This document shows positions 7,562-63,254 of a stretch of 64,000 bases of DNA, piece by piece (the first letter of the stretch is position 1; each line of letters starts with the position of its first letter). The notes beneath the pieces are model-generated. The model did not search any database, had not been told where the DNA came from, and saw only the letters and a list, made by a program, of their open reading frames with translations. The stretch is from Chlamydiota bacterium (lineage in GTDB: Bacteria > Chlamydiota > Chlamydiia > Chlamydiales > JABDDJ01). Location: positions 28,419 through 92,418 of the forward strand of contig JABDDJ010000001.1 in NCBI GenBank assembly GCA_013287645.1, in the 5' to 3' direction. The translations under genes and the position numbers were made by a program.

Positions 7562-9127
7562 ATGAGTAGTGTAAACTTAAGAGTTCCAGGTACTGCTCCT
7601 CCTCTTCCTAATATCGGAGGGGATATTAACCGACTTTCAGGAAAAAATAAAGCACAGCAGGAAGGAGCACAACATACAAATGATGTTGCAACGCAAAATT
7701 CTAAAGTACTCAGTGCTTCTACGCAACCTTCATCTCATACTTTCCAAAACTTGGGCACATTTCAAGAGATGCAACAAAATTTTGCTAATCAATCGGCTTT
7801 ACTTGAACAGTTCACAAATCCTCCTGATTTTAATGCATCTAATTATACAGAAGAAGATGAACTTCAAGACTTTGACGAAAATCCTGAGCCTCAAACTCCA
7901 ACTTCTACTTCTTCTTCAAGTTCTCCCCCTTCCAGTTCTTCGTCTTCGTCTACTCACGAAACCAGTCAGACGACTCTTCCTCCGATACCTCCGGGAAGAC
8001 ACCTTCCTCGATCACTAAGTGTTTCATCTTCTTCCAGTTCTTCTTCGTCTACGTCTACTCATGATACCAGTCATACTACTCCTCCTATTGAACCTCAGCA
8101 TCAGCAAATAAACCCACCCCCAACGGCAAGTAATGTACATAGCGTTGATCATGATGAGCTTACAGATCCACCTGAAGAATTAGCACAGCAGACAGGAAAA
8201 AACTTTCTTCAAAGACTATGTAGTGGAGAATCCATAGAAAAACTAAAAGATGCATTTGGTTGGTTTTTGTCTTGTAGAGTTGTTAAATGTGTTGGTTTGG
8301 TAACTCTAGGAATAGCAATAATCGGAGTGTCGCTTCTTGCTGGTACAGCAATAATTGGAGCTGGAGTAGCAGTAACCATCAAGACTCTAGGTTTTGGACT
8401 TATTCCTGGAGCTCTGATTGCAACAGCAGGAGCAGGCATTATGGCTACAGGAGTACTTTTTGGTCTTAGCGTAGGAATCAAAGGACTTGCAGAAATTATT
8501 CCTGGCTTAGACGGTAGTGTGTTTGATAATAGAAAAAAACAAAAACCAGGACAGTTACCTCAAGGAACACCACCACAAAACTTGACACCTCCACAAGGTC
8601 AATCGCCAAATCCATCACAAAATCCACCAGGAGCTACTCCTTCTCCAAATCCATCAGGAGCTACTTCATCACAAAGTTCTTCTTCAACAAGCACTCCACC
8701 ACCTCAATCCACCCTTGCTAAAAAACAAAATGATAGTACTTTACGAGAAAAACAGGAAGAAGGAGAACAATTGCAACCTCCTTCACAAACTACTTCATCA
8801 TTTAAACCACTTCCCCCTATACCATCTCCTTTACCACCTCCTCCACAAACTATCTCATCATTTAAACCACTTCCACTTCCACCTCAAAGTGATGTCACAC
8901 CAAGTATATCTTCTTCATCAAGCAGTCCACCGCCATCTCCCACCACTGATCAGACTTCAACTAATTCAAATGTTGAGAGTCAAAAGGAAAAAAAACGAGC
9001 TCGTCGTACTCATGGTGCTGTTGGCGATCAACGACATAAAAAAACCCTTCAATCCTCTACTACATCAAATTCTTCTACCTCATCGTCTTCCTCTTCAAGC
9101 TCAAGTTCAGCTTCAGAAAAAACTTAA
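7562..9127 (+). CDS. Inc-like (inclusion-membrane-type) protein with a central bilobed hydrophobic domain and Ser/Pro-rich repetitive tails
   Basis: 521 aa with no signal peptide. The single ~70-aa hydrophobic block VGLVTLGIAIIGVSLLAGTAIIGAGVAVTIKTLGFGLIPGALIATAGAGIMATGVLFGLSVGI (nt 8291-8510) is split by TIK. The flanks are poly-Ser and PxxP-rich with internal duplications. Confidence 0.6.
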   Translation: MSSVNLRVPGTAPPLPNIGGDINRLSGKNKAQQEGAQHTNDVATQNSKVLSASTQPSSHTFQNLGTFQEMQQNFANQSALLEQFTNPPDFNASNYTEEDELQDFDENPEPQTPTSTSSSSSPPSSSSSSSTHETSQTTLPPIPPGRHLPRSLSVSSSSSSSSSTSTHDTSHTTPPIEPQHQQINPPPTASNVHSVDHDELTDPPEELAQQTGKNFLQRLCSGESIEKLKDAFGWFLSCRVVKCVGLVTLGIAIIGVSLLAGTAIIGAGVAVTIKTLGFGLIPGALIATAGAGIMATGVLFGLSVGIKGLAEIIPGLDGSVFDNRKKQKPGQLPQGTPPQNLTPPQGQSPNPSQNPPGATPSPNPSGATSSQSSSSTSTPPPQSTLAKKQNDSTLREKQEEGEQLQPPSQTTSSFKPLPPIPSPLPPPPQTISSFKPLPLPPQSDVTPSISSSSSSPPPSPTTDQTSTNSNVESQKEKKRARRTHGAVGDQRHKKTLQSSTTSNSSTSSSSSSSSSSASEKT

Positions 9128-22900: not shown

Positions 22901-25900
22901 GTTGTTGATAGACTTGTAAAACAGTGTCCTGAAACAAACATTTTTGATGAGTCCATCAATGCCTATCCTCTCTTAGCTTTTGTCAATGGACATGGTAATC
23001 ATTTTGATAGCCCAGAACTACAAAAAAGACTGCGCGATGTTTGTGAATACTTCATGCCGGATATAAACATCGATCAACTGCCTACTGATCCATTCACTGA
23101 CTCAACTATTTTAGAAAAAGTGCAAAATTCTTTGTTCGACTACTCGAAAAAATCTACGCTTGATTACTTTTTTAATCGACAGGCCCTTCCAGAAGCGAAA
23201 TATTTACTTGATATTTCTAAAAAATGCGATTTTTCTTCTATTGGAATTCCAAAGGAGACCAATAATGAAACGAAACTCAATATTCTCTTTAACGAAAGCT
23301 TAGTATTTAACAGAAAAGATCCCCTCATTCCACGGCCCTTCAGCCTGCTGAAACTTCACACACTCCTCGCTAACCGAATCATCACTCTAGTGGGTTCAGA
23401 ACATAGCTGGGACAAACTCACACCCTGTCTCTTAAAAGACCCTAACGTTAAGCCTCCTGAACCTAATGAATATTTATCCAAAAGGTATACAGCTGCTCTC
23501 TATGAAACACTAAAGCCTCTCCAACAGGCCAACTTTATCCCCAAAAACCATCCTAATAAAGACAGCTCATTCTTTACCGATGCTAAGACATGGTCAGACT
23601 TTAGAAATGGATTAAGAACTCAGTCTGAAATCAATATCTCTTCGAAGGGACGACCTTCTCTCTTCCAGGAAGAAACTCCTGAAACCGATGAAGTCTCAAA
23701 AGCCTTCGAATCGATCTTTGTCGAGAAAAATGACCAGCCTCTACGCTTTTTTGATTTTATTTCCGAATATGCCCTAAAGCTGCCTGAAGACCCCTTTCAA
23801 AGCAAATTAAATGAACCTTTAGAGTCAGCCTTATTTGCTTATGGCATAATGGATAAGCATTTGTCACTCTCTCCTCACTCTGCAGCCTATATAGCTAAGT
23901 TCTTTGATGAACAATTCGAGCGCATGTTCGAAGCCAAGCGCTATCTATGGTGCTTATGGCTAATAAGGATAGGATTACGTTTAAAACCTCTCGTGCTCAA
24001 GCATAACCCTGACGTTAAGTTTCCTGACTTTTACGCTCAAGCACAAAGAATCATCGCCACACAGAATAATCACAGCCCTCTGATTGGAATAGCTCTTAAG
24101 CTACAAGCGCTCTCTCTTTCTGACAAGGATCCTAAAGAATCCATTATGCTAGCCTTTACAAGGGCCCATTTCTATCCAGATGTGGCCTACAACTTCGTCG
24201 AATTCAACGAAAAATATGGCAAGTGGCTGCCCGAGATAAAAAAAGAAAAAGAAAAATTCTATTTGAATCTCTTAGAAGATAGAAACATTCCAGAAGAAGT
24301 ATTGAAATTTGAATTTAATTTCGAAACAGGCGTGATAAATGGACCTCCACAATATCACCTAGACACACATTATGCTATCGAAGAAAAAACCGCTGAAGTC
24401 TGTGAGGAAGGCAAAGAATTAATTAAAATGGGTAACGCCGCGAAGCCCGACGAAATTTACTATGAAGATCCCTTGGGCAAAATATCTGTCTATCCTAACT
24501 TCGAAAAAAATACGATTGTTATCAAAAAAAGATTTAATGGTATCCCCAACATCTGTAGGTATGTTAAGACCCAACTTCCTGATGGATTATTAACATTTGT
24601 AGATGGCAACAGAGAGCTCCTGAACTCTGCCAAATGCTGGCAAGAAGAGACCATAGAACCTATCAAAAGAATGCATATTGAGTTCTCAAATGGCAAGTCA
24701 ATCGAGATTGAAATCGATACCTCCGCATTTACAATGCCTATTGTGTTAGCCTCAAAAGATTCCGTTACCACATCATTAAACATCACTCAAAAACCATCCC
24801 TTTCTAAGAAAGAAGGCTATGAAGCTGTAAATATTTCTTTACAGGATAACCTCTTCAGAAAAGTTTTTGATCTTAGTCAAGCACAAATCGATCATGCTAC
24901 TTTTTGGCTAGAATCCACAGAGAGGCCATTAAAAAGATTACTTATTGTTTTAGCTAACAAGGAAACCTCCGCTTTTGAAGTCGAGCAAGTCCCCCTTAAA
25001 ATCACTAAAGTTAAGCTCTCTGATAGTAAAGAACTCACCTATATCCCCAACGAGTCAATCGCTCACTCACTAGCTCCAATAACACGTTTCTGCCCTAGAA
25101 AGAAAATTCACACTTGGGCAAGCAAAGACCCACTCATAGCTGACACCATCTTTCTAGAACCATTTAACGTTACTTTTAAAGTCCAGAATAACAAAGGAAA
25201 AATTCAAGCTGATTGTATTTCTCACTTCCCCAACCATCATATCGCCGAACAGCAGCTCCATCCCTCTCTTGAAGGCTTTTGCTCCTACCTACTTCTCAAG
25301 AATGAGCATGGCGACTGCAAAGTGATGTTCCCTGATGCACAATGGGTCACTGCTGGTCTCGCTAGCTTTCTACCAGGCGCAGGACTAGAAGGTTCCATCG
25401 CGCGCGCGCTTGAAAACTGGATGGGCATCCTTCAAGAAAAACAGATTTCGAATGTACAATCCTTTTTTACTTTCGATATTGATAAAAATGGACGGCTCAG
25501 AAGTGAAGATCCTTTTGCACTCATTTACCTTACCTGTCTATACATTCTCCAAGGAAAGGAAGATCAGGCTGAGTTTACCTGTAAAGAGCTTTTACGCATC
25601 TATAAGTCGACTCACTGCAACGTTGACCTAAATAAATTTTTATTTCCTCTTTCACTTATTCCGCCAAAATTCACTTTAGTCTCTCGCATCCGTCGTAAAA
25701 TATTTGCAGCAGTTGAAAAAAATCGTCGGGACGAAAAATTAAAGCAACCAGAAAATACTAATCATAAAACACTTGCAGCGTCTCTATTCGAATCTTTTAT
25801 TCCTATCTACGCCTGCTATGAAGATCTAAAAGCCAATAATTCCGAAACTCAAGCACGTTATAAACTCACCATAGAAGAAGAGTGGTACCTATATAATCAT

Positions 25901-28900
25901 CTCCTTGGTCATATAAAAAATTTGCTTGAAAGAGTAGCCGGCTTTACGCCTGCTCAGTTCAAAGCCATTGACGACAAATTTGGCTGGGATTCCGTTTTTA
26001 CTCTCTTAGGCTTTACAGACCTCTCTAACAGATACATATTCCTTAGAACTAAGTTTGGTAAAGAAATAGGAATTGGAAAATCCATCCTAAATACTGCTTT
26101 ACAAGCCGTACATACTCCTTCAAGCATTCCTTCACTCTTTTCGGATTTACCCCTTCCAGCCAGTAACATGGGTCAACGCATTTTTAATGACCTTCGTCAA
26201 ATTGCGCAAACTGCAGTCATGGATCGCTTTATGGGGATTAAAGCTCTTGAAAACGAAAAATTTTTCGAAACAATGGAAACTGATATCTGTGATTCAGTAC
26301 CTCTTGTACCAGGACAACTACAGTCAAATGTCTCACGCTACTTCTTAACGTATTACGCGATCGCTAAAGGCGAGCTAGGTATCGAGAAAAAAGAAAAATT
26401 AAGGTCTATCCTCCAAATCGACAAAGGAGGATATTCTCCAGCCTCACGCCAACTCATGGACTATCTTGAAAATGTCGTCAGTACACCGTGGGCCTTCCCT
26501 AAGCCTCCAAAATTAGCTAGCGCATTGAGTACAAAAGAACAAGAATTAAAATTAACTCAACAAGAACTAAAATTAATTCAAAAAATTCTTCAAGAATTAA
26601 AATTAAAGCTCTGTTCCGAATTTATTGAAACCATCCACTCTCGCTGTACAAAAAAATCTTACTTAGTCGGAGCCGGTAATTTTATCTATCATACTGCTTG
26701 CCACTTAGGCTTCTCACAAACAGTTGGACGCACAGTCAATAGCAGTGCCCCATCCGTCTTAGGATTCGGATTTACAACAGCTATGACATTGACTAATTTA
26801 GCGGTTCAGGGTACTTCCAAGATAATCAACGCCGTCAAAACCCAAAGAGAACAATCAGAGAAAAATGAAGCGCCACAACTGCCTGTAACGAACCCATCTT
26901 CAGAAGAGATTTCGTTCGATTATAACTTTTTACAAAAAGAAGACGATTATGTGGATTCTGTTTTAGATAATCTGTTCACTATCGCATTCGAAGAAAAAGA
27001 AATCACTAAAAGAAATAGTATCACTATTGATAGATTTCAATCCAAAGAGACATCTACCGAAGCATTTAAAGAAAAAATAAAAAATGCAAATGAGAGCCTA
27101 GACGAATACCACGATAGCAACAACTCTCCCAATGAAAAAGTCTTCCAGTATAAAGGTAAACAATTTCTTTGTAATTTACACACTTCACTATTAACCTTCA
27201 AAGAATCCCTACAAGCGCGCTTTGACGAACAAATATCTATTATTCATGCAGCCGCAAATCCCGAAGGGCAAAAGGTAAAAACTTCCTTTGAAATTATCAA
27301 AAAATGCCTTCTAAATAATTCCATTCTTCAGTTAGGAAAAGAAATTGGCCTATCGCCTGAAGAATCCATCAACCTAGAAAAATCTGTCCTGCGCTATGCC
27401 GTTTTAGGTAGTCGCCTAAATCAAATGATTAGAATTCTAACCCATTTCGATAAACTTAACTCCATAGACACAAAAAATCAGCGCGATGCTTATAGAAATA
27501 TCCTCTGTGATATCGCCTCAGAGTTAAAAACACGCCGTACTTACCGCTTTGACAACATTGCAGATAAACGCTTACTTAAACGCTTCGTGCTACTCGAATT
27601 CCTTGACAATATCCTCCTATGGGATAAACAGACCAAACCCATCACTGAAAGCATTCAAAATAAGGATAACAACTATGTACAGGTCGTTCTCCCCTCTCTT
27701 GGAAAATCAAAAGCTTTAATCCCTCTCTATAACTCCTACTGGACTGATGGGAAACACATCACTTTTGATATTTGCCCCGAAGCAATCTCTGGACCATTTA
27801 CTAGAGACAATAGCCGACAAGGATCACAAGTCTACGACCTCCCCACAAATATCCTTGACATCTCTCGCAAAACATCCACAGATCCCACTAAAATACATGG
27901 ACTAAAAACCCTTTTACATAGCGTAGAAAATAACCAAGAAACTATTAGCGCTACACCTGCAGAAATTCAAACCATTGAACTACTTCTTATCGATTACCTA
28001 GAACGCGCTGAACGGTTGCCAGCCGATTCTGAATTTGAAAGCTGCTTTAAAGTACTCCAGAAATCCAATACAAAGATCTATGAAAATGGCATCCTAATCG
28101 CAGATGAGATTCATGAACTCTCAGACCCTTATAAAAAACTGATCTACTCTCTTGGCCCAGCCTACACTCTTCCTAAATCTTACTACTTAGTCATGGAGAT
28201 GTGTATACAAGAACTCTTGAATCAGGATAAAGACAGCTCGTTTACAAATTCCATTCGCTCACATACTTCTAGAGGCTACCCTAAAGATAAATATAATGAT
28301 ATGGCTCTTCATGCAGCTGAGGAGCTCTCCAACTCCTATATTTTCGAACTCACATCCGAACAAAAACAAGACTTTATTCAGTATGTCTCAGGTATTGCCA
28401 AGATAGTTCCCGCTTGGATCAAAGAACATCCCATGAGTAACGAAATCACTATGGCTAAAGGAACTATAGCTACCCTTATTCCACATCTACTATCCCTCAG
28501 AGCCAATGTCGATTACGGTCCAAATAAACAAGGATGCGCTATTAGCTATGGCGGAAACATGCATCCTCTTCACAATCTCTTGTTTAAAAGTCCTTTTGGA
28601 AATACCCTTAAAAACTTTTTTATCTATCTCCATTCCACCCTTACCCATGAACAAGCAACTCAACTCTGGGATAAACTTAAGCCCTTTGTAGCCTCACTCA
28701 TTCCAAACGCAACGCCAGGTTCATCTGCATATAATTCCCTTAAAAAAATGCTGCCCGAAGAAACAATAAATCTTATTTTTAAAAATGGCATTGAAGCAAG
28801 CTACAAAAAAATCATTGAAAGCCTACAAAAACATCCTCAAGCAGGTCTCCTCTTCGTCCGATTCTTCATCAGCAATCAAGTTGTCTATTGGAAACGCAGC

Positions 28901-35178: not shown

Positions 35179-36768
35179 TTATACAGCTTGTTGTTCCTTC
35201 AATACCAAGCTTTCTTCAATAACTAATGGCTTTGGCGCTTCTGTCGGTACAGAACGTGTCTTGCCAGACAATATATTAAACTGCTTTCCAAGCATATAGG
35301 TAGCCACTGTCCAAATCCCTATTGTCGTCATTAAGAAACCTGCCACATAAGGCGCTGAAATAGTCAAAGAACCAAATGCTACTAAAAGTCCTTGGTGAAT
35401 CAGCGCTCCGCCTGACTTTCCTAAGCGAGAGCAGACACCGTCAATTGCAGACTTAGCTTTGACCTTCTCCTCATGCGAAAGCGGAATGAATGCCATCTCT
35501 TTAGTTGCATCGAAGACAGAATACTTGGAGGCTCGGCTAAGTACGTTTTGAGCTGAGCCAAAAAAGACGACCATTGCTAAGGGCGACATGCTTAATGTGG
35601 CTAAGATGGCATCTGTTCCATATTCTTTCAAGAAAAAGAATCCAAAAAAACCGATACTCGTAACGAATAAAATGATTGGCGTAAGCATAGCTGTAAAGGT
35701 CCATCCACACTTTCTAACGGCATTTCCGGAGATAAACAACGCCGTAAAAGTTGCCAAGACACCAATTAAAGAAGAGACCTGGTTCATGTAGATGTTGTAA
35801 TCGTTTTCGCTCGGATAGAGCTCCTTAACTTCAAACTTCCATAACACTTCGACCAGATTGATCACTAAATTGTAGGATACCATAATGACAGCCATGCAGA
35901 GGACATAGCGGGAGTTGAAAAGCATCGAAAAGTTACTTCTCATCGAAAACTTCATTTTTTTGCCTGAAGCGTCTGCTTCTGCCAATGGCTTAAAGCGGTC
36001 GTCGGTCAAGATATTGCGGTTGAACCAGCGGAAAAGAATCATGGTGGCAATACCTGCAAGTGTCACAGCACCTATTTGTAGAAAAAGAGATTGCTCCCAG
36101 GCTGTAGAACCAAAAGGTATATCAGGATTATAAGCGCCTCTTGCAAGAAGGACACCCAGCTGGCCAGAGACGAATCCGGAAAAATTGGCTCCAATGCCAA
36201 AGAGGCCATAGAAGCGTTTAGCTTCGCCCATGCGAGTAATTTGGTTAGCGAATCCCCAAAAGAGGACAAAAAGGACGATATTTCCCCACAGTTCAGACAT
36301 GACGTAAAAGCCAGTTGCGGTCCAGTTGCGGATCATGGCAACAAAACCTTTGAAACCTATGGGAAGGATACTTTGGAGATAGTCGGCAGTTTCGTTAGGA
36401 TGTAAAGCATCGCGATTGGGATAGAGTACGAGTACATAAAGGATAAAATAGGCGAGAAATATGGAAGTCATCAGGTAGAAGACTCTTTCTCGATTAAGGC
36501 GGTTAGATAGTCTTGTGAATAGGTAGGTCATTAAGACTGAGCCAGGAAACATAACCCAGACTTTAATGAAGGGTATGACTTCTGCTCCAGAACCTTGAGC
36601 ATGCATGACAAGAGGATCTTTGAGAATGCGCAGGATGTTGTAGCAAAAGGAGATCAGGAAGAAGATGCAGAGCATCGGAACAAGCTTTTTGAGCTCGTAA
36701 TTATGTACAGGCCATAAGTAGGCCCGCCAACCACTAAATTCTTTAGTCTCTGACGGAGCAGTAGACAT
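35179..36768 (-). CDS. ntt: Nucleotide transporter (NTT/Tlc family), tandem paralog
   Basis: 529 aa. Carries the same family motifs (YELKKLVPM..., YSVFDATKEMAFIPL, AKSAIDGVCSRLGKSGG). Lies 20 nt from the neighbouring paralog. Confidence 0.9.
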   Translation of the reverse strand: MSTAPSETKEFSGWRAYLWPVHNYELKKLVPMLCIFFLISFCYNILRILKDPLVMHAQGSGAEVIPFIKVWVMFPGSVLMTYLFTRLSNRLNRERVFYLMTSIFLAYFILYVLVLYPNRDALHPNETADYLQSILPIGFKGFVAMIRNWTATGFYVMSELWGNIVLFVLFWGFANQITRMGEAKRFYGLFGIGANFSGFVSGQLGVLLARGAYNPDIPFGSTAWEQSLFLQIGAVTLAGIATMILFRWFNRNILTDDRFKPLAEADASGKKMKFSMRSNFSMLFNSRYVLCMAVIMVSYNLVINLVEVLWKFEVKELYPSENDYNIYMNQVSSLIGVLATFTALFISGNAVRKCGWTFTAMLTPIILFVTSIGFFGFFFLKEYGTDAILATLSMSPLAMVVFFGSAQNVLSRASKYSVFDATKEMAFIPLSHEEKVKAKSAIDGVCSRLGKSGGALIHQGLLVAFGSLTISAPYVAGFLMTTIGIWTVATYMLGKQFNILSGKTRSVPTEAPKPLVIEESLVLKEQQAV

Positions 36769-37172: not shown

Positions 37173-38399
37173 CTAAAACTTCAGAAGTTGTTTTCTAAAA
37201 TCGTAGTCAAGTTCAAAAGAATCTACTAAATATTGATCAACGTTTAATGAAGGGACTCCATTATTAGAAACCGGTCCATCACCAGAAGATCGATCTTGAT
37301 CATACCACTTTGCCAAGCCGGACACAGCATAGGTATCATCACCTTTATTTTGGCTGACAATAATTGCATGTAATGAAACTTTAAATTCTTTTAATTCATC
37401 GTTCAAATATTTACTTTCAGCTTCTTCTTTTACTTGTTTGAGAGTATTTTTTAGGATGTTTTTTCTTTCTGCTTCACTGTCATTTTGGATTAGCATCACT
37501 TGATGATGAATATTATCATTCACAATGCAATCAAAGTAGACATTGCTGTTATTAGGCAGTTCATAGTCCCTAGAAAAAATATCATCATATGCATAGGTTA
37601 GATAAAGCTTTGCCTTCGCAGCTGAAGTTTCTTTGATTTCTGCAGGTTTTTTAAATACCGACAACATAGGATTAGCCAGAACAGTATGAACGTAGGGAGC
37701 ATTCAAAAGCTCTAACTTACTCAAGATATCCATATCTTCTTTTGAGAGAGCAAATAATCCAATAGATGGATTAAATCTCTCGGTTAATTCCGCTAAGGAC
37801 ATACCTGATTGCGGTTCTTGCAAAAAATCTATGTTGGTTTTTTTAGTTCCATTTTCTGAGAATTTATAGTTAAATGATTCATAGCCATATTTTTCTGTAT
37901 TAAGACGATGAAAGACATCTAGACTGACATTTAATTCACAAAAACTACAATAATCTTTTTTAGGTATTTTTTTATAACATTCACTTTCAAATACATTTAA
38001 CTGATTGGAAAGAGGATTCTTATTCTTCTCATCGATTGTAAAGCGTGCCATATATTCGGATTTTCCCTGCATATGAAATCTTAAACGAAAATAGCAGCAG
38101 CTATTGGATTTAGAAAATTTGTATCTCCGAAGATTTTGACAGGCGTTATAGAGGTCATTTCCCGTTTTAGTGACTAGGTATTCATTGCTGAAAAATTTAA
38201 TAAGCGGAAAGGTGGTGTAAAAAAGTAGGGTGAGGAGTGGATAGGCTAAGCCGGCTTTAAGGTATGTGACAGCTTTCTGCCAGCCGATGGATTCTTTGGA
38301 GCACTGAATATAATCGTTATAAGCGTTAACTAACGGCTTTGTTATATAGGGAACATCATATAATTGAACTCCACAAAATCGATTATTTACTTCTGCCAT
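37173..38399 (-). CDS. Hypothetical membrane-associated orphan protein (effector-like)
   Basis: 408-aa ORF, AT-rich. One hydrophobic stretch, AVTYLKAGLAYPLLTLLFYTTFPLIKFF. No recognisable motif. Confidence 0.55.
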   Translation of the reverse strand: MAEVNNRFCGVQLYDVPYITKPLVNAYNDYIQCSKESIGWQKAVTYLKAGLAYPLLTLLFYTTFPLIKFFSNEYLVTKTGNDLYNACQNLRRYKFSKSNSCCYFRLRFHMQGKSEYMARFTIDEKNKNPLSNQLNVFESECYKKIPKKDYCSFCELNVSLDVFHRLNTEKYGYESFNYKFSENGTKKTNIDFLQEPQSGMSLAELTERFNPSIGLFALSKEDMDILSKLELLNAPYVHTVLANPMLSVFKKPAEIKETSAAKAKLYLTYAYDDIFSRDYELPNNSNVYFDCIVNDNIHHQVMLIQNDSEAERKNILKNTLKQVKEEAESKYLNDELKEFKVSLHAIIVSQNKGDDTYAVSGLAKWYDQDRSSGDGPVSNNGVPSLNVDQYLVDSFELDYDFRKQLLKF

Positions 38400-43634: not shown

Positions 43635-44429
43635 TTATTTAGGCAATTGGTAGTCAAAAATTTTATTTATCCTGTTAGGTAAAGGAAGCATTGCTTGACG
43701 ACATTTTGCTTCAAACAAAGCAGGAGGTTCGAATGACCTTTTCTTGGGAAGAGCATTAATAAACTCTCTTTCAGCATGGTTGACAAAACCCCTCTTTTTC
43801 TGCAGATCGGGATGATTTCTTCCCTTATCTGCGAGGCGGCGGATTTCTTCTTTTAATACTTGAAGAATGATATCATTGCAGTATAAGTTAGTATGGTGCG
43901 CATAAGCACTCAATTTAACTTCATCAGAAACATCACTATTTTCTTCAGAGTAGATCATATTTTTCATTTCATCAATTTTAGTTAGTGTTACCTGGATATT
44001 GACATTCTTTTCTTTAGCACGAGCAATCCATTCATTAAGGTATAACTCAGAAATTCTTGCGTCTTCTGCAGAACATTCAGTTAATCCAAGGACGAATATT
44101 GGTCGGTTTGATAGAGGAACAGGTTCAGGAAGAGGTGCAGGAAGAGGTGGAGGAACTGGAACAATAGCTTGATGATCTCGAATAGTATCTTCAAGCATCG
44201 TATGAAGCTTATGTAATGACCAAATCTTTTCTTTTAATTTATTTTCACAATAATGTTTAGGGTAATCACAAGAGGTGAATACAATATGATTAATATCTTT
44301 TAAGAAAGTAAGTTGCTGATTGACATCGATACCATACTGTCTTGCTTCTGCTAGTAAATCAGCATTTTTGCCTGATAAAAGGTTCATACTGTGTATCATA
44401 GGACGTGCTAATTCTTCTGAGATAATCAT
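43635..44429 (-). CDS. Hypothetical orphan protein with a proline-rich PVPPPLPAPLPEPVPL segment
   Basis: ORF. I moved the start to ATG 44429 because a strong aaggagg RBS lies 5 nt upstream of it. No known domain. Confidence 0.6.
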   Translation of the reverse strand: MIISEELARPMIHSMNLLSGKNADLLAEARQYGIDVNQQLTFLKDINHIVFTSCDYPKHYCENKLKEKIWSLHKLHTMLEDTIRDHQAIVPVPPPLPAPLPEPVPLSNRPIFVLGLTECSAEDARISELYLNEWIARAKEKNVNIQVTLTKIDEMKNMIYSEENSDVSDEVKLSAYAHHTNLYCNDIILQVLKEEIRRLADKGRNHPDLQKKRGFVNHAEREFINALPKKRSFEPPALFEAKCRQAMLPLPNRINKIFDYQLPK

Positions 44430-44559
44430 GGCAACCTCCTTTTTGAGGATGTACGGAGCAGAGATCACTGCTCCCTTACTCAACGCCATAAATCTTCAAA
44501 TAATTTTTTAACACTCTTTTCTATATCAAATCGGTACTGAAGCTTAGAGAGTGATCACA

Positions 44560-46161
44560 TTAGTTTGTGATTTTTCTGGCTTTGGAGGAATTGTTGAGAG
44601 CGTAGGAGGGCATTTTGGCATTGCAATAGTTTTCTAGAGCATGGTGGTGCAGGTTTAGAGCTCGAAGCGTAGGATGATCATTGAATTTTTGAGTGCCTTT
44701 GGGTGTTATATCGGAATTTTCGGCATTAAAATAGAGTAAGTTTTTTTGGTAAGTCAATATTTTATCGATGGTGGTATCTCCTATCTCACTTTCAGATAGA
44801 TCCAAAGCTGTTAAATTTGGCAGATGAGGTAGAATAAGAGCTACTTCCACATTTTTTAATTTATCTTTCCTATCGCTTAAAGCTAAAGATATTAGGTTGG
44901 GAAGCGGTTTCAACAAAGAATCAAGTAAGCTTGGTGCCAATGATGAATTGATACAGTGCAATTTTTCTAAATTTTCAAGGTTAAGAGCCTCAATATGTAA
45001 AAATCTGATTTCCAGCTCTTTAAGAGAGGGAAATGCATTAAAAATTGTGAATAATTGACCTGGTTTTGGTTTTACTATTTTAAAGAAGCCATCATCTAAT
45101 GCTAAAATAGAAAGATGTCGACAAGGAGTCTTTTTAGAATTTAGAGCTTTAATGATTTGTTCAGAAAAAAAACTTAAATGATGGACTTTTATGCTCATTA
45201 ATTTTTGGCCCAACACTTCAACTAGGTGGACAAAACATCCATTGCAATATTCATTGAAAAGCTTTTGGCTTTCATAATGAATTTCTTTGACATGATCCAA
45301 CTTCGCTAAATCATCAATAGCTTGATACATCTCTTTAAATGCTTGTTCACTATCAATTCGAGTCATACAAATTTTTAGACTTGTCTCCTTTAAATTAGGC
45401 AACCCGGAAAGGACAGATAGTGTCATCAGGGGATTTGAAACGGGTTCTCTTGAAAAAGGATTTCCAACAATATTCTCTAAGAAATGTGTGTGTTCAACTT
45501 TTAGTGAAACTAAAGATGTCGCTGTTGAGAGTTCATTTAATACGGTAGGTGGAATAAACCCATTTAATGTGAGATGTTTTAATGATTGGAGCTTTGTTAC
45601 AATCGTTTTTAAAGAGAACTTTACATCAGATTTGATTGTCAATATCTCTACAGAATGAAATCTACGGATTTCACTGACCTCAAAAGACGAACTTTTTAAC
45701 GTCACTTTTAGTTCCTTAAGCGAAATGCAAGGAGTTGTGTTTTCTTCAAACTTCCAAAGATGCTTACAGTTAGAAAGGGTAAGCTTTTGTAACCGTGTAT
45801 GATCAAAGATAGGCTTTAATGTTTTTAATCTTTCATTGCAGTAAGAGGGCTTAAGAGAAAACTCTTCTAATTTCTCCAAACTCATTAAAGTCACTAATTC
45901 AAAATGGCCTATATTGCTGTCTCTTAAGGTCAATGAGGTTAGGTTAGGAAAAGTTTTAATAATCCATTGAGGGCATAAGGTAGTAATTTTTTTAACCCAC
46001 CTAGGCTGTTGTTTTTCTTCTTCAAAGGGCATGTGGGATAGGTCTAAAGAAGTAACAGCAGCACCGTATTCCTCAAAATTAGATACCCACTTTGGTGGAA
46101 AGTCTAAGCTGCCATTATTGCGAAAATAGGCTTGTTCAAATCTTATTGGATATATGCTCAT
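44560..46161 (-). CDS. Leucine-rich repeat protein (RNI/FBXL-like LRRs), effector-like
   Basis: 533 aa with ~24-28-aa repeats carrying LxxLxLxxC/N patterns throughout ([55 protein letters not shown]). AT-rich (15 G+C in nt 45121-45180). ATGA overlap with the gltX stop. Confidence 0.8.
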
Positions 46162-58021: not shown

Positions 58022-58124
58022 GGATTGAATTCCCTTCTGCTATGTCGATAAAGATAGGTATTACAATACTAAACTATCAAGAAATTGTCTAGAGAAGAAA
58101 ATTTACCTCTTGCATAATTTATTT

Positions 58125-58156
58125 CCTTGCCCTTGCCCTTGCCCCTGCCCATGCCC
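58125..58156. repeat. CTTGCC short-period tract (single arm)
   Basis: Sequence ccttgcccttgcccttgcccctgcccatgccc, same style as the GGAC/CGCAAAG families. Lies in the divergent region between secDF and the riboswitch. Confidence 0.55.
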
Positions 58157-58208
58157 GATTAGTGCGGTTTTTGCTTTCACTTAAATTACACACTTTGCGA
58201 TGATGTTT

Positions 58209-58301
58209 CCTAAAACCTTTTCAGGGAAAGACCGGTGACAATCCGGCACTGTCCCGCAACGGTAATTGAGGATCCCTCATAAGTCCGATTGCCTGATTAG
58301 G
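58209..58301 (+). ncRNA. Cobalamin (B12) riboswitch aptamer
   Basis: Core cagGGAAagaCCGGTGacAATCCGGcaCTGTCCCGCAACGGTAA matches the conserved cobalamin-riboswitch core (compare E. coli btuB leader AGGGAAUCCAGUGCGAAUCUGGAGCUGACGCGCAGCGGUAAGG, from memory). B12-box-like AAGTCCGATTGCCTG is present. The closing helix is cctaa (58209-13) / ttagg (58297-301). The RBS gaggagg and the ATG lie 12-23 nt downstream. Confidence 0.8.
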
Positions 58302-58323
58302 TGCAACTCCCGAGGAGGAACCC

Positions 58324-58926
58324 ATGTTTCAACAAATTCGCTTAAAACTCGCTCAAACGATTCATTCATTTTTTCTTTGGTGCTCATTTTCTATGCGTAG
58401 AGCCTGCTTGCATAGAATTTTGGGATTCATCTTTCTAGGAATGATGAGCCGCTTATTACCCCATCCACCTAACTTCACGGCCATCAATGCCATTGCTTTA
58501 TTCGGCATTTGCTCTTTGGGGAATTTGGGTATCTCTCTTTTTACTGTATTCTCGACCATGTTACTTTGCGATCTTGTCATTGGGTTTCATTCAAGCATGG
58601 TTTTTGTTTACCTCAGTTACGGACTGATTGTGCTAATGGGATATTGGTTGAAATCAAAAAGATCGCTGATACGAAGCATTTTTTTACTTGCATTATCCTC
58701 TCTTCTTTTCTTCATCATTACGAATTTTGGCGTATGGCTCGTCGGTTCAATGTACCCAAAGACCATTATAGGGCTTGAACTGTGCTATCTCGCTGCAATC
58801 CCTTTCCTTTCAAACAATTTGATGAGCACTCTTTTATATGGGGGTATGCTATTTGGGTGGTTAGCACTCGCCGAGCGGGATATTCCTGCCCTGGCACCAA
58901 AGAACCGATACAGCTTAATTAATTAA
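58324..58926 (+). CDS. Riboswitch-controlled small 6-TM membrane protein; candidate cobalamin/corrinoid uptake component (ECF-S/BtuM-like)
   Basis: 200 aa with about six hydrophobic helices and the conserved-looking N-terminal motif RLLPHPPNFTAINA. Function is inferred only from the upstream B12 riboswitch and the topology. Confidence 0.55.
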   Translation: MFQQIRLKLAQTIHSFFLWCSFSMRRACLHRILGFIFLGMMSRLLPHPPNFTAINAIALFGICSLGNLGISLFTVFSTMLLCDLVIGFHSSMVFVYLSYGLIVLMGYWLKSKRSLIRSIFLLALSSLLFFIITNFGVWLVGSMYPKTIIGLELCYLAAIPFLSNNLMSTLLYGGMLFGWLALAERDIPALAPKNRYSLIN

Positions 58927-59031: not shown

Positions 59032-60831
59032 TTATGCTACATGAGTAAATAGAGCCTGTATTCCCATCGAATCGGTTAACTCTATATGAATGATAAAAGA
59101 AAGAAGATCATCTAAATCAAAAGGATAGTAGTCATTTAGGTTTTTGAATCTTTCAGATTCACTATCAACTTCTATTTCGAAAAGCTTATTTTCAGAAAAT
59201 AAGTGCGTTTTCAAAGTATAACCACCATGGTCCTCTACTAACATAGAGCTTCCATTTGAATCGGCAATGGCCAAGTGAAAACCATGATGTGTGGCCACCA
59301 TAAGTAAATCTAAAAAACATTCTTTATGTAACTGAGGAAGGATATAACCTGAATCCAAGATAAATTTATTTGTTCTTTCGTAATCCGAAGAGATCAAAAT
59401 AATATCAACTCCTCGTTTTGCTAGTGAAGTATGAGTTTCAGGAAAAAGAGCATCGACTGTTGAAAGGATTCCTATTCTAGCATGAGGGAGATCTAAGATT
59501 TTAGATTCTTTCACTAATCCTGCTTCACCTGAACTTCTATGGATGTTTCTTACAATGTCATAGGACCCGTCGCTTAAGAAATAAATCAAAGCTTCTTCTT
59601 TATCACCCTCTCCAAGATCTAAATTAATTGTAGTCAAAAGTAAGCCGACTTTATTGATAACAACTATCTCTTTCAATCGATACCAAATGTCATCATCAAA
59701 ACTTTTTTCCATTCCAAATTTAGTGAGTGTCACAGTTACAGCAAGTGCAGGAAGGACTAATGCATCGATCGTTTTGGTCGAACCTTTAATTAAGTTTTCA
59801 ATTTTTTTAATATTATTCTCTGGGGCTGCCTCTGGAGAAAAGTTTGCAATAGCAATGTTTGATTTCCCAGATATGGGGAGATCTTCTATGATCTTGTTAC
59901 CAGCTCCCTTTAAATAATAATCGTTTCTCATTGACGTATAGGCAGCTGGATTTCTCATACTAAGCGTATAAATTTGGCTTGAAGGAGCTCCTGCATTTGT
60001 GCGATTTATTTGAATATCTGAGTATAGAATAACATCTCCTGTCGCTTTGTCATCATCTTTTTTCCGGTACAATAAATTTATTTTTCCTGATGGATCAATG
60101 ACTACCGATGCTGCATCGTTCATGTCGTATGTGTAAGTTTCAGAATACCTTAAGTCTATTTCCATTCCCCATCGGTTATTGACCATTACCCAGATTCCAT
60201 TTTCAATTGCTCTTGTCCGCCATATCTTTTCTTGCCCTGCATTACCCCACCAGTTAGCGGGTACGAGTAAAACGTCAGCGCCTTTTACAGCAGCAATTCT
60301 ACTCATATCGGGAAGATAAGTATCGGAGCATACGACTACAGCGATGCTTCCAAAAGGAGTATGGATAACCTCAACTGGCAAATTTCCACGATCATTCCAG
60401 CCTGCAGTACCTCTTTTGCGGTTGGTCATCAGGGAGCCTGTGGGCCCGAACATAATAACTGAATTGTACAGACGATTTTCTTCAGTTTTTTCAACTGCTC
60501 CAACAAAGACATAACCCTGATAACGACTTGCCAAATTTTGCATTTGAGCAAGTTCTGAGAAAGGGTTCTCAATAGCAAGATTGAGAGCTTGTTCTTTCGT
60601 GAGAGAGTATCCTGACAGTGATAGTTCTGGGGTTAAAACAATTTGAGCATTATTTTTAAAAGCTTCTTCTACTAGCACATTCAAATTGTTAATATTTGAA
60701 TGAAGTTCGCCAAGACTAGGATTCCAATGTATAAGCGCAACTTTGACAGAAGTCTCGCTGCAAAATACAGAGAGTTCTAAACTGATAAACAGTATCCAAA
60801 TTAATCGGATTATCTTACTAAATTGACTCAT
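59032..60831 (-). CDS. Secreted tandem carbon-nitrogen hydrolase (nitrilase superfamily) protein; second domain degenerate
   Basis: Signal peptide MSQFSKIIRLIWILFISLELSVFC. Domain 1 carries an E-K-C triad context (LTPELSLSGY, NRKRG, AVVVCSDTYLPD). Domain 2 has the equivalent positions changed (LPALAVT, GILSTVDALFPE). Confidence 0.7.
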   Translation of the reverse strand: MSQFSKIIRLIWILFISLELSVFCSETSVKVALIHWNPSLGELHSNINNLNVLVEEAFKNNAQIVLTPELSLSGYSLTKEQALNLAIENPFSELAQMQNLASRYQGYVFVGAVEKTEENRLYNSVIMFGPTGSLMTNRKRGTAGWNDRGNLPVEVIHTPFGSIAVVVCSDTYLPDMSRIAAVKGADVLLVPANWWGNAGQEKIWRTRAIENGIWVMVNNRWGMEIDLRYSETYTYDMNDAASVVIDPSGKINLLYRKKDDDKATGDVILYSDIQINRTNAGAPSSQIYTLSMRNPAAYTSMRNDYYLKGAGNKIIEDLPISGKSNIAIANFSPEAAPENNIKKIENLIKGSTKTIDALVLPALAVTVTLTKFGMEKSFDDDIWYRLKEIVVINKVGLLLTTINLDLGEGDKEEALIYFLSDGSYDIVRNIHRSSGEAGLVKESKILDLPHARIGILSTVDALFPETHTSLAKRGVDIILISSDYERTNKFILDSGYILPQLHKECFLDLLMVATHHGFHLAIADSNGSSMLVEDHGGYTLKTHLFSENKLFEIEVDSESERFKNLNDYYPFDLDDLLSFIIHIELTDSMGIQALFTHVA

Positions 60832-60870: not shown

Positions 60871-61557
60871 TTAGTGATCTTCGCATGTAAATTTATTAGA
60901 ATTTAATTGAACAAAACCATGGTCGCCCTCAATGGTGATTTTTCCAAGGTCTACTACAATGGGAGACTGAAAAACAGGTCCGTCGAATACAAAGGTGTGG
61001 AACTCGCCATTTTCTCCGCATGGATCAATGCTTGGGGGTAGGTCTGACAGAAATTCTTCATTGTATGATCTGCCTAAAAATGAAATAGGTAATGCTTTAA
61101 GATTAATGCTAGTGATGATTGCTTTAAATCCACTATTAATAATGCTTTTAGCAAGTTCAGATGTAGGTTTTTGCCATAAAGGAAAAAGAAGTTCAATTCC
61201 TGTTCCTTTCATTTTTTCTTCTCTGTAGGATCGAATATCTTCAAGAAATAAATCTCCAAACGCAATATGAGAGACGTTTTGATCCAAGGCAGTTTTTAGC
61301 AGTGTTCTCATTTGTTGTTCAAAACTTTGTTGGTATTTATTGATCCCTGCTTCTGTACAATATAAAGGCAGCCCCAGCTCTGAGGCTTGACTCTTTAGAA
61401 GATGTTCTGGCGTGCCATGCATGGCGACAGCGCGTGAAGTCGTTAGTGTAGTAAGTAATCCTTTGATTTCGTATTTTTTGTTCAACATTAATTGATGCAA
61501 AGCATACGCGCAATCCTTTCCAGTGCTCCAGCTTAACCAAATTTTTATTTTTTCCAT
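60871..61557 (-). CDS. Dph6/MJ0570-like ATP pyrophosphatase (adenine nucleotide alpha-hydrolase, DUF71 type)
   Basis: 228 aa. PP-loop-like LSWSTGKDCAYAL and C-terminal GENGEFHTFVFDGP (compare GE-GE-x-T/H-x-V in diphthine-ammonia-ligase-like proteins). Confidence 0.7.
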   Translation of the reverse strand: MEKIKIWLSWSTGKDCAYALHQLMLNKKYEIKGLLTTLTTSRAVAMHGTPEHLLKSQASELGLPLYCTEAGINKYQQSFEQQMRTLLKTALDQNVSHIAFGDLFLEDIRSYREEKMKGTGIELLFPLWQKPTSELAKSIINSGFKAIITSINLKALPISFLGRSYNEEFLSDLPPSIDPCGENGEFHTFVFDGPVFQSPIVVDLGKITIEGDHGFVQLNSNKFTCEDH

Positions 61558-61715: not shown

Positions 61716-63254
61716 TTATAGTGCTGCGGCTGCAGGCTCTTTCGATGAGGCCTTTGTAGATTTTTCGCCAGTCAGCAACAAGAATTGCTTATTGAGCGAA
61801 CGTACAGCCACTAACCAGGCGCCGATGGTAGCAACCATGATCACAGCTACGTAAGGAGCAATGGCTCCAAAACCTAACGAAAGGATCAATACTTGCTGGA
61901 TGAGGGATCCACCCGACTTACCCAATCTTGCACCCACAACGTCGATAGCTGCTTTACCCTTTACCTTCGACTCTTGATCGAGGGGGATGTAAGCCATCTC
62001 TTTAGTTGGGTCGAACAGAGAGTACTTTGTCGACTTACTTGCTAAGTTTTGGATCATACCTAGTACAACGGCCATAGAAACAGTTGTCGCACCGAAATAG
62101 GATACAAATCCTTGCAGCAGTGAGCTATCTTGGAAGATAACGAAACTGAAGAATCCGAGACCAGTCAGCATGAGGATGATAGGTGTCAGCATTGCAGCAA
62201 TGCCCCAACCAAATCGACGGATAATCCAGCCACCGATAAACATCATCGAGATATTTACGGCACCGCCAATTGTGGAAAAGAGACCCATAAAGGCGTTGTA
62301 ATCGTTTGGATTGGAATGCAATTTATTAATTTGACCTTTCCATGTAACCTCAACAAGGTTAATAGCGATACCATATCCGATAACAAGCAGAGCGATGCAA
62401 AGGATGTAGGGAGACTTAGCGAGGAAGAGGAAGCTTTCGCTAATGGACATTTTTGGCTTGCTTTTCTTCGCTTTTGCTTGTTGAGCAGGATCATAGAAGC
62501 GTGTATCGGTGAGAACATTGCGCTGAATCCACCAATAAATAGCATAGATGCAGAGGCAGGCGATGACGACCATTCCCATCAAATAATTGAGGGTTATTTG
62601 CCATGCATCCACATCGGGAGGTAGTAGTTTACGGATGTTAGAAAAATAGATAATGGAAGGACCGGATAAGAGAAGTGCTACGTTAGCGCCCATACCGAAG
62701 AAGGTATAGACACGCTTAGCTTCGGTCACTTTCATAATATCGTTTGCAAAGCCCCAGAACATCAGGGAGAGAACAGCGCTTCCCCATAGTTCGGAAAGAA
62801 TATAAAATAATGAGAAAGTCCAGTTACGGTAAACAGCGATCATTCCACCAAAACTTTCTGGTAGCGAAGCTTGCAGCCAGTTAGCAGATTCGTTAGGGTG
62901 AAGCATGTCGCGAAGAGGATAAAACACTGTCGCGAACAGAGCGAAGAAGATCATGAAAGGAAAGAGAGTGACATAGAATAGTTTTTCTTTGCTTAGGCTA
63001 TTGCTGAGTTTTGAGTAGATCAGCATGAAGATAACGGCTGAAGGAAGGACGCCCCAGAATTTAAGGAAAGGGATGACTTCTGCACCACCAGCGGTCACGA
63101 CGAGAGTATCTTTCGTGTCGCGTAGAATGGTGTAGTTAAAAGAGATGAATAGCATCATCAAAAACATCGGGAGCATTTTTTTGAGTTCGTACATATGTAC
63201 GGGCCAAAAAAACGATCGCAATTTGCCGAATTCGGCAGTAGCATCTTGTGACAT
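61716..63254 (-). CDS. ntt: Nucleotide transporter (NTT/Tlc family), third paralog
   Basis: 512 aa. Contains YELKKMLPMFLMMLFISFNYTILRDTKDTLVV, YSLFDPTKEMAYIPL and GKAAIDVVGARLGKSGG. Confidence 0.9.
   Translation of the reverse strand: MSQDATAEFGKLRSFFWPVHMYELKKMLPMFLMMLFISFNYTILRDTKDTLVVTAGGAEVIPFLKFWGVLPSAVIFMLIYSKLSNSLSKEKLFYVTLFPFMIFFALFATVFYPLRDMLHPNESANWLQASLPESFGGMIAVYRNWTFSLFYILSELWGSAVLSLMFWGFANDIMKVTEAKRVYTFFGMGANVALLLSGPSIIYFSNIRKLLPPDVDAWQITLNYLMGMVVIACLCIYAIYWWIQRNVLTDTRFYDPAQQAKAKKSKPKMSISESFLFLAKSPYILCIALLVIGYGIAINLVEVTWKGQINKLHSNPNDYNAFMGLFSTIGGAVNISMMFIGGWIIRRFGWGIAAMLTPIILMLTGLGFFSFVIFQDSSLLQGFVSYFGATTVSMAVVLGMIQNLASKSTKYSLFDPTKEMAYIPLDQESKVKGKAAIDVVGARLGKSGGSLIQQVLILSLGFGAIAPYVAVIMVATIGAWLVAVRSLNKQFLLLTGEKSTKASSKEPAAAAL

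Follow-up and report, generated by a model that had tools for sequence, protein, structure and literature searches.

A short cobalamin riboswitch ahead of a DUF6580 gene suggests vitamin B12 sensing and uptake by an environmental chlamydia

Introduction

About half of the bacteria that depend on vitamin B12 (cobalamin) have no BtuCDF system, and for most of these the inner-membrane transporter is unknown (PMC6072759). One protein described in this setting, BtuM of Thiobacillus denitrificans (PDB 6FFV, 8C7P), is a solitary, S-component-like B12 transporter and decyanase, a small protein of six transmembrane (TM) helices and about 20 kDa. BtuM proteins are recognised by a cobalt-ligating, invariant loop-3 cysteine (Cys80 in BtuM_Td; PMC6072759). 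Here we describe a locus within a 64,000-nucleotide (nt) stretch of a Chlamydiota genome (GenBank assembly GCA_013287645.1, contig JABDDJ010000001.1, positions 28,419 to 92,418; hereafter the window, in whose own numbering its features are given), at which a short class-II cobalamin riboswitch lies directly upstream of a gene for a membrane protein of the family DUF6580. We consider it likely that the riboswitch controls translation of this protein, and that the protein, similar to the S-components of energy-coupling factor (ECF) transporters, works by itself in the inner membrane as an importer of cobalamin or of a corrinoid related to it.

Riboswitches of the RF01689 family form a kissing loop that is stabilised by cobalamin and that joins L5 to L13, the latter being the loop of a downstream hairpin, P13, where the ribosome-binding site (RBS) lies; in env8-type members a 7-nt linker joins P1 to P13, unpaired purines lie in the kissing helix, and mRNA decay reinforces occlusion of the RBS (PMC5028336). 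A further family tied to corrinoid salvage is bacterial DUF71, whose subgroup DUF71-B12 (within COG2102) clusters with B12 transport genes and for which a salvage role has been proposed (de Crecy-Lagard et al. 2012, PMC3541065). As to the host, the chlamydial ancestor was inferred to have lost cobalamin synthesis and to have probably been dependent on uptake (Dharamshi et al. 2023, PMC9816063). Our literature search found no paper reporting a cobalamin riboswitch in chlamydiae; in itself the riboswitch described here is a typical representative of a familiar class, and the unusual part is its chlamydial host.

Results

A cobalamin aptamer directly upstream of the DUF6580 gene

When the whole window was scanned against Rfam (cmscan), a single match reached gathering level: RF01689 (AdoCbl-II, clan CL00101), a short class-II cobalamin aptamer at 58208-58302 on the plus strand, which scores 47.3 bits (gathering score, 36.5), with an E-value of 2.6e-8 and an alignment that spans the full model (positions 1-81 of 81). 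The end of the aptamer is 22 nt ahead of an ATG, at 58324, with which the DUF6580 open reading frame (ORF) starts. An initial annotation, made by inspection of the sequence, had read a cobalamin-aptamer core and a B12 box in this leader and had named an Rfam scan as the check; the elements lie where it placed them, and the score is above the threshold. That the aptamer is genuine we regard as practically certain.

The core elements seen in the leader are the GGGAA junction, CCGGTGACAATCCGG, CACTGTCCCGCAACGGTAA and the B12-box-like AAGTCCGATTGCCTG; a hairpin CCGG-UGACAAU-CCGG can also be read in it, together with CACUGUCCCGCAACGGUAA and the B12-box-like AAGUCCGAUUGCCUG. Named after Polaski 2016/2018 (PMC5028336, PMC6158498), the elements, all on the plus strand, are the outer closing helix P1 (cctaa/ttagg, 58209-58213 with 58297-58301), J1/3 (58214-58220), P3 (58221-58225 with 58292-58296), P4/L4 (58232-58246), P5/L5 (58250-58258, with the loop CCC at 58253-58255), P6 (58260-58262 with 58285-58287, bearing a hairpin at 58267-58279) and the B12-box region (58281-58296). 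The conserved core, including the L4 T-loop hairpin, CUGUCCCGCAACGGUAA and the 3' segment of the B12 box, is present in full and is invariant or nearly so in eight orthologous leaders. An exact 26-mer scan of metagenome contigs found the window's 26-nt core unchanged at 33 loci. None of these has DUF6580 downstream, and about 18 of them, on contigs of 46-76% GC, precede a lipoprotein ORF of approximately 320 aa instead.

Conservation of the aptamer among close chlamydial relatives

We compared the window with ten distinct contigs that encode close relatives of the protein (52-85% identity), giving 11 loci in all. At eight of these, the window counted, a riboswitch lies directly upstream of the DUF6580 orthologue. 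Six of the relatives' copies reach an Rfam gathering score, the best model being RF01482 at L081/L082 (56 bits), L085 (51 bits), L121 (55 bits) and L124 (63 bits) and RF01689 at L084 (42 bits) and L122 (43 bits). The copy at L083 was recognised from the alignment, and a covariance model built from this set gives it 113 bits. Because the orthologues are divided in this way between RF01689 and RF01482, the preferred form of cobalamin (Ado-, Me- or aquo-) cannot be called from sequence.

The window's core is identical to that of six other intact copies. Across the eight intact copies P3, P4, P5, P6 and the P6 hairpin are paired in 92-100% of cells, and in slid controls, in which the 3' partners were moved by 1-3 columns, no more than 46% of cells are paired. 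Five pairs have changed on both sides, a number equalled by 1 of 500 shuffles; compensatory examples are P4, where CCGG/CCGG has become UUGG/CCAA, and the P6 hairpin of L124, where GAGG/CCUC has become GAAA/UUUC.

Proposed expression platform

The proposed expression platform lies between the aptamer and the ATG, at 58302-58323 on the plus strand. It would consist of a 6-nt linker J1/13 (58302-58307), a mini-hairpin P13 of 3 bp (UCC/GGA, 58308-58310 with 58317-58319) and its loop L13 (CGAGGA, 58311-58316), and it includes the Shine-Dalgarno sequence (SD) GAGGAGG at 58312-58318, which stands 5 nt before the ATG. A terminator scan of the window found no terminator-like plus-strand site from the aptamer to the ATG, and since the SD also begins only 10 nt past P1, control is likely to be translational. 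L5 (CCCG, 58253-58256) is complementary to the CGAGG of L13 (58311-58315) provided that A58313 is bulged, and the SD-containing stretch CGAGGAGGA is kept in seven of the eight leaders. The CGAGG loop motif recurs at L088 and L105, two unrelated riboswitches from high-GC metagenome contigs with an L5 identical to that of the window, where the P13 hairpin that holds it (CCCU-CGAGGCA-AGGG) is clearer and has the SD after it. A conserved long P13 hairpin was not found, either by minimum free energy folding of single leaders or by alifold analysis of the platform region. RNAalifold on five leaders returned a different, non-canonical fold in which the J1/3 region pairs with the SD; it shows no covariation, and it was set aside because the middle of J1/3 varies freely.

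The closest described arrangement is that of env8HyCbl and the AdoCbl-variant class (RF01689, Cbl-II), with which the window's leader shares a short four-way-junction aptamer having a J1/3 bulge, L4 and L5 and no large peripheral extension of P6, and a short linker (6 nt in the window, 7 nt in env8) to a purine-rich, SD-bearing loop, so that translational control is expected (PMC5028336). It differs in that P13 has only 3 bp, P1 is poorly conserved, orthologues often score best against RF01482 (AdoCbl), and the host is a chlamydia and not a marine or free-living bacterium. By analogy, the platform appears to be a compressed version of the env8HyCbl layout, and we lean slightly towards an OFF switch on translation that acts through L5-L13. 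The mRNA would start at or just before P1. While intracellular corrinoid is scarce, the SD would be accessible and the transporter made; on binding to the four-way-junction aptamer, corrinoid would stabilise the contact between CCCG of L5 and CGAGG of L13, with A58313 bulged, and this contact would bury the SD, repress translation and probably lower the stability of the mRNA.

Directly 5' of the aptamer, a TG-n-(G/A/C)ATGAT block is invariant in ten aligned chlamydial leaders (the window, L081, L083-L085 and L120-L124), and it is still present at L120, which has no aptamer. The window's copy is the candidate extended -10 promoter TGcGATGAT (58196-58204, plus strand; TG at 58196-58197, hexamer GATGAT at 58199-58204). 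From its resemblance to an extended -10 element, transcription would be expected to start on the first P1 nucleotide or no more than a few nt from it. A consensus promoter scan picked another, weaker site, TAGAGA-17-CATAAT at 58090-58118. The same intergenic region, between the SecDF and DUF6580 genes, holds a tandem hexamer array, (CCTTGC) x 5.3, at 58125-58156 (Tandem Repeats Finder score 50, 92% matches), approximately 40 nt upstream of the promoter-like block.

The DUF6580 protein has a predicted S-component fold

The gene at 58324-58926 on the plus strand encodes a protein of 200 aa that matches PF20221 with 141 bits against a gathering score of 27 (E 5.4e-41, profile positions 9-162 of 162); no NCBIfam equivalent was found for it. 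The initial annotation had described this ORF correctly, as a six-TM-type protein with RLLPHPPNFT at residues 43-52 and with Cys82 and His89. There are 3109 homologues in a large protein collection, and some of them, including proteins from Waddliaceae and from metagenome-assembled genomes (MAGs) of Chlamydiales, are named by NCBI as 'DUF6580 family putative transport protein'.

An AlphaFold model built from a 26-sequence alignment (pLDDT 88.5, pTM 0.81) predicts an extra N-terminal helix followed by six TM helices. The extra helix (residues 1-24, 58324-58395) occurs only in the riboswitch-bearing chlamydial clade (e.g. P0003, P0006, P0014 and P0030), and a typical DUF6580 protein begins near window residue 24. 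When the model was compared with the PDB by Foldseek, the best match was 8c7p, BtuM with cyanocobalamin (TM-scores 0.62/0.68, root-mean-square deviation 3.6 Å over 186 columns, probability 1.00), and the next matches were all ECF S-components (4huq_S, RibU, FolT, PanT, ThiT and BioY). An ECF S-component fold for the window protein is supported by this model, and since BtuM is the top match and other S-components follow, the idea of a solitary S-component-like protein is supported at the level of the fold.

Residue conservation was scored on an alignment of the 120 best DUF6580 homologues. Tyr96, Trp138, Tyr144, Gly150, Cys154, Pro160 and Phe161 are each present in 120/120, followed by Pro46 (119/120), Arg43 and His47 (118/120 each), Asn50 (117/120) and Asp83 (116/120). 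The conserved motifs are R43-LL-PHPPNFT in L1, D83-xxx-GFH in L3, Y144-P in L5 and C154-Y...P160-F in TM6; in the model these sites fall in loop 1, at the end of TM3 and in loop 3, in loop 5 and at the start of TM6, and from the general topology of S-components they would share the outer, substrate-binding face. The initial annotation had drawn a parallel to BtuM in which a cysteine ligates cobalt, and had singled out Cys82 and His89. Conservation rejects these two as BtuM-like ligands: position 82 is Cys in a single homologue of the 120, the window protein itself, and otherwise mostly Ser (103) or Thr (9), and position 89 is His in 94 and otherwise Tyr (24) or Asp (2). If any residues of DUF6580 ligate cobalt, the candidates from conservation are Cys154 or His47.

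Compared with BtuM, the DUF6580 proteins are likewise small six-TM proteins of about 20 kDa with a predicted S-component fold for which BtuM is the best solved match; they occur in Gram-negative lineages, where their genes lie beside btuB or are B12-controlled and have no ECF or ATP-binding cassette (ABC) ATPase nearby; and their conserved residues lie in L1, L3 and L5, the outward substrate-binding loops of S-components. They differ in having no detectable sequence similarity to BtuM and a Pfam family of their own, in the absence of the loop-3 cysteine, and in their own set of invariants, Cys154 (within TM6), Tyr96, Trp138 and Tyr144, with His47 nearly so; the window protein and its close relatives also carry the extra N-terminal helix. 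Because it fails on both sequence homology and the loop-3 cysteine, we file the protein as DUF6580 and not as BtuM. What survives of the BtuM-like solitary transporter first proposed is the fold, with BtuM as its closest structural match, the genomic context and the lack of an adjacent energising module, and what falls away is the Cys/His ligand pair and any relationship to BtuM at the sequence level. The comparative evidence argues strongly that, besides BtuM, DUF6580 forms another, independent kind of solitary S-component-like corrinoid transporter.

DUF6580 loci in other phyla are linked to B12

A scan of genomes, one per species, with the single protein as query gave no relative, and a subsequent alignment-based scan of the same genomes found at least 590 DUF6580 loci, of which 80 were kept for context counts. 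These 80 span Alpha- and Gammaproteobacteria, Acidobacteriota, Ignavibacteria, Verrucomicrobiota, Planctomycetota, Elusimicrobiota, Bdellovibrionota, Chlamydiota and others. Context was read from 4-kb flanks, using Rfam scans for riboswitches and hidden Markov model (HMM) searches of all ORFs. A riboswitch of the cobalamin clan is present in the flanks of 53 of the 80 loci: in 25 it lies upstream on the same strand, as an operon leader, in 27 it is divergent and directly upstream, an arrangement typical of Sphingomicrobium and other Alphaproteobacteria, and in one (L032) it is on the same strand downstream of the gene. The flanks also hold a TonB-dependent receptor at 49/80 loci, a DUF71 (PF01902) gene at 18/80 and a BtuF-like Peripla_BP_2 protein at 15/80.

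A recurring riboswitch-led operon consists of a TonB receptor, DUF71, DUF6580 and a BtuF-like protein with, or followed by, DUF5522, and DUF71 and DUF6580 share one such operon at L013, L014 and L023. No ABC ATPase was found within 4 kb at any of the 80 loci by a screen for Walker-A and signature motifs that recovered the window's Wzt ATPase as positive control, and at five of the riboswitch-led operons nine additional flanking ORFs gave no match to FecCD or ABC_tran. As these operons encode an outer-membrane receptor and no other permease or ATPase, DUF6580 is their only inner-membrane candidate, and it has no energising module close by, as has been described for BtuM (PMC6072759). The BtuF-like protein that follows DUF6580 has no signal peptide, its domain starting at residue 4-6 (L013 4490-5884; L023 4570-5799; about 15/80 loci), and it is fused to, or trailed by, a Cys-rich DUF5522 domain with CxxC motifs; it may serve as a cytoplasmic corrinoid acceptor or chaperone. 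We hold it very probable that DUF6580 is functionally tied to B12.

Two minor observations were made in these scans. At L047 and L050, both Binatia MAGs, two cobalamin riboswitch matches stand in tandem on one strand (232-549 and 1465-1804) upstream of a TonB receptor-DUF6580 operon, the second being partial (model positions 45-169). Just 3' of DUF6580 at Sphingomicrobium-type loci, there are borderline matches to RF03128, the L31-Coriobacteria leader, with 33-35 bits against a gathering score of 33 (L025 4535-4568; L069 894-925; L072 4546-4577; L077 4537-4569), which may be chance or a real L31 leader.

Neighbourhood of the DUF6580 gene in the window and in chlamydial relatives

Upstream of the riboswitch and divergent from it is the gene for SecDF, a 1522-aa fusion. 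This fusion, the three TLC/NTT transporters and homologues labelled Waddliaceae, Chlamydiales and Parachlamydiaceae mark the window as chlamydial. No btuB, btuCDF or ABC/ECF ATPase gene was found within about 5 kb of the window's DUF6580 gene, in agreement with the initial annotation, and the 64-kb window as a whole has no ECF genes. Convergent with DUF6580 is a gene for a CN-hydrolase of amidase/nitrilase type (59032-60831, minus strand, 599 aa; PF00795, E 4.7e-32), which lies 40 nt downstream of, and on the same strand as, a gene for a DUF71/Diphthami_syn_2 PP-loop ATPase (60871-61557, minus strand, 228 aa; PF01902, E 6.9e-34). These two genes are probably co-transcribed, and the next one along encodes an NTT transporter (61716-63254). 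The DUF71 gene is approximately 2 kb from the riboswitch-DUF6580 unit, linked to it but outside the control of the riboswitch, and from its family and position it is a candidate DUF71-B12 salvage gene; whether the CN-hydrolase belongs to a B12 module is uncertain.

The physical link between a PF01902 gene and a putative B12 transport gene is what the window shares with described DUF71-B12 loci. It differs in that the published clustering is with btuFCD and cbiB, whereas the partner here is DUF6580, often within the same riboswitch-led operon, and membership is assigned by family and clustering, not by phylogeny.

Among the chlamydial relatives, L085 has DUF71 convergent with and adjoining DUF6580, an FmdA/AmdA amidase gene beside DUF71 (L085 3613-5138), and a cobQ fragment (model positions 136-368 of 480) that is divergent and upstream of DUF6580. 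At L120 a full-length cobQ (cobyric acid synthase) begins 9 nt after DUF6580 (NF001989, 547 bits against a cutoff of 273; TIGR00313, 487 against 310), and a CN-hydrolase gene lies just past the DUF6580-cobQ pair; the aptamer deletion at this locus and the cobQ observation are at L120 2340-2506 and 3100-4560. Such a corrin-amidating enzyme is unexpected in chlamydiae. From these gene neighbourhoods the clade therefore carries, or once carried, a small corrinoid module of riboswitch-DUF6580-(cobQ) with DUF71 and an amidase, of which the window keeps the riboswitch, DUF6580 and DUF71; cobQ is not among the window's genes.

Discussion

The locus suggests that an environmental chlamydia senses and takes up B12-type cofactors. 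Taken by itself, the proposition that DUF6580 imports cobalamin or another corrinoid is one we hold with fairly good confidence, both its substrate and its direction of transport being inferred; that a riboswitch-controlled stand-alone importer is what the window encodes is likely to nearly the same degree. It is reasonable to infer, as the initial annotation did, that this chlamydia senses host corrinoids and imports them, and the organism may itself use the cofactor. As in the BtuB-BtuFCD and ECF-CbrT systems, a B12 riboswitch stands ahead of the putative uptake gene, and in other phyla DUF6580 takes the operon position in which one would look for btuCD, after a BtuB-type receptor. The differences are that DUF6580 loci have no ABC ATPase or permease, that the chlamydial locus has no outer-membrane receptor or binding protein, and that the BtuF-like protein of other phyla has no signal peptide and carries the Cys-rich DUF5522.

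Several observations weigh against this interpretation. On the RNA side, P1, which the initial annotation had correctly located 22 nt before the ATG and ahead of a strong RBS, is paired in only 55% of cells across the eight copies, and the promoter-like block would start transcription right at this poorly conserved helix, a coincidence that could relate to its weak conservation. With just 3 bp, the stem proposed as P13 is short and lacks covariation support, and since L5 and the SD are nearly invariant, the L5-L13 kissing loop is beyond the reach of covariation. Three close relatives have lost the aptamer: it is absent at L086, cleanly deleted at L120, in a deletion lying between the GGGAA junction and the SD, and degenerate at L123. 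Scans with Rfam and with our own covariance model found no aptamer at the more distant chlamydial DUF6580 loci L001, L003, L004, L018 and L052. On the protein side, our literature search for DUF6580 turned up no paper; no PDB chain was found by sequence even at an E-value of 10, either by phmmer with the protein or by hmmsearch with a 26-sequence profile, although BtuM (8c7p) is in the PDB; and the Foldseek E-value of the BtuM match is weak (0.17), though its probability and TM-score are good. The 64-kb window holds no B12-dependent enzyme, and the locus has no BtuB/TonB-type outer-membrane route. Finally, in the seven chlamydial genomes available at the time, Zhang et al. (2009) saw no use of cobalt or B12, and they described its loss as complete across the phylum (PMC2667541).

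The alternative that survives best, unlikely as we judge it, leaves the riboswitch real and has DUF6580 carry or handle something other than whole cobalamin: either a corrinoid that is damaged or not complete (such as cobinamide, derivatives of cobyric or cobyrinic acid, or de-amidated B12) or else a precursor of the lower ligand, to be repaired by neighbouring amidating enzymes. S-component-like proteins under B12 control that carry lower-ligand precursors are known, CblT being an example. A genuine cobQ directly after DUF6580 at L120 fits this alternative, as does the sharing of one operon, in several phyla, with DUF71, a homologue of diphthine-ammonia ligase. The same is true of the ammonia-releasing amidases beside DUF71, CN-hydrolase in the window and FmdA/AmdA at L085: the pairing of an ammonia-releasing hydrolase with a PP-loop amidoligase mirrors glutamine-dependent NAD synthetase, and one may speculate that DUF71-B12 amidates a carboxylate, perhaps on a corrinoid side chain. 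A role in salvaging or remodelling corrinoids has been proposed for DUF71-B12 genes (PMC3541065). However, the commonest partner of DUF6580 is a BtuB-type TonB receptor (49/80), which is typical for whole corrinoids, cobQ has been lost at the window locus, and none of the chlamydial loci examined has genes for nucleotide-loop assembly.

It is less probable still that the aptamer is a relic without regulation and that expression is constitutive. The loss at L086, the clean deletion at L120 and the decay at L123 show the course that such a relic might take, and the weak conservation of P1, with a conserved promoter-like block abutting it, would also be in keeping with it. The window's copy, however, scores above the gathering threshold over the full model, has a core identical to six other intact copies, belongs to a set in which the pairing of P4 and of the P6 hairpin is preserved through compensatory changes, and retains the SD-bearing CGAGGAGGA along with the aptamer, and the decayed copy at L123 is clearly different from it.

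Nor do we think it at all probable, placing it marginally below the relic, that DUF6580 is B12-related but no importer, acting instead as a membrane-bound corrinoid-processing enzyme or chaperone (a decyanase or reductase) or as an exporter. BtuM itself has a chemistry of its own, decyanation (PMC6072759), the invariant Cys154 and invariant aromatic residues of DUF6580 could do chemistry, and in other phyla a cytoplasmic BtuF-like protein with the Cys-rich DUF5522 accompanies it. Against this, the top structural matches are all substrate-capture subunits of vitamin importers, DUF6580 is the sole inner-membrane candidate in operons with an outer-membrane receptor, and uptake genes are the norm under this riboswitch class (PMC5028336). 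A chance resemblance beside an unrelated membrane ORF, for which only the short length of the aptamer speaks, is refuted by the comparative data and has a negligible probability, given the E-value of 2.6e-8 for the sole Rfam match in 64 kb, the conservation in orthologous leaders and the cobalamin riboswitches at 53/80 DUF6580 loci.

DUF6580 is a concrete candidate for the missing B12 transporter, with thousands of members, tight linkage to cobalamin riboswitches and to BtuB, and a BtuM-like predicted fold that does without the catalytic cysteine. For the phylum, the conserved B12-sensing RNA, the putative importer, DUF71 and the cobQ of a relative form the first locus-level evidence for B12 sensing or salvage that we have found. 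The locus also offers a new handle on the long-unsolved function of bacterial DUF71-B12 proteins. A wider proposal, which we put forward tentatively and with somewhat less than even confidence, is that DUF6580 is an unrecognised, widespread family of corrinoid transporters independent of an energy module, structurally convergent with or very distantly related to BtuM, with His47, Cys154 and aromatic residues as a ligand set of its own; in many Gram-negative phyla it would stand in for BtuCD behind BtuB, and it would work with DUF71 as an ATP-dependent amidoligase, with cobQ and with the cytoplasmic BtuF-like/DUF5522 protein in corrinoid capture and repair. That obligate intracellular chlamydiae have kept it, together with a riboswitch that works, would then imply that they monitor and parasitise the B12 pool of the host cell, contrary to the earlier view of loss.

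Other features of the window

No corrin-specific biosynthesis genes were found in the window. It does contain a fused HemC-HemD gene (porphobilinogen deaminase and uroporphyrinogen-III synthase, 5487-6842, plus strand), whose product makes the precursor common to haem and corrins. Five ORFs (7562-9127, 31090-32865, 37173-38399, 43635-44489 and 44560-46161) have no Pfam match at an E-value of 1e-5. An ORF of 3659 aa occupies 19928-30907 on the plus strand, and three paralogues of the TLC/NTT nucleotide transporters, a hallmark of chlamydial energy and nucleotide parasitism, are encoded at 33557-35158 and 35179-36768, in tandem, and at 61716-63254.

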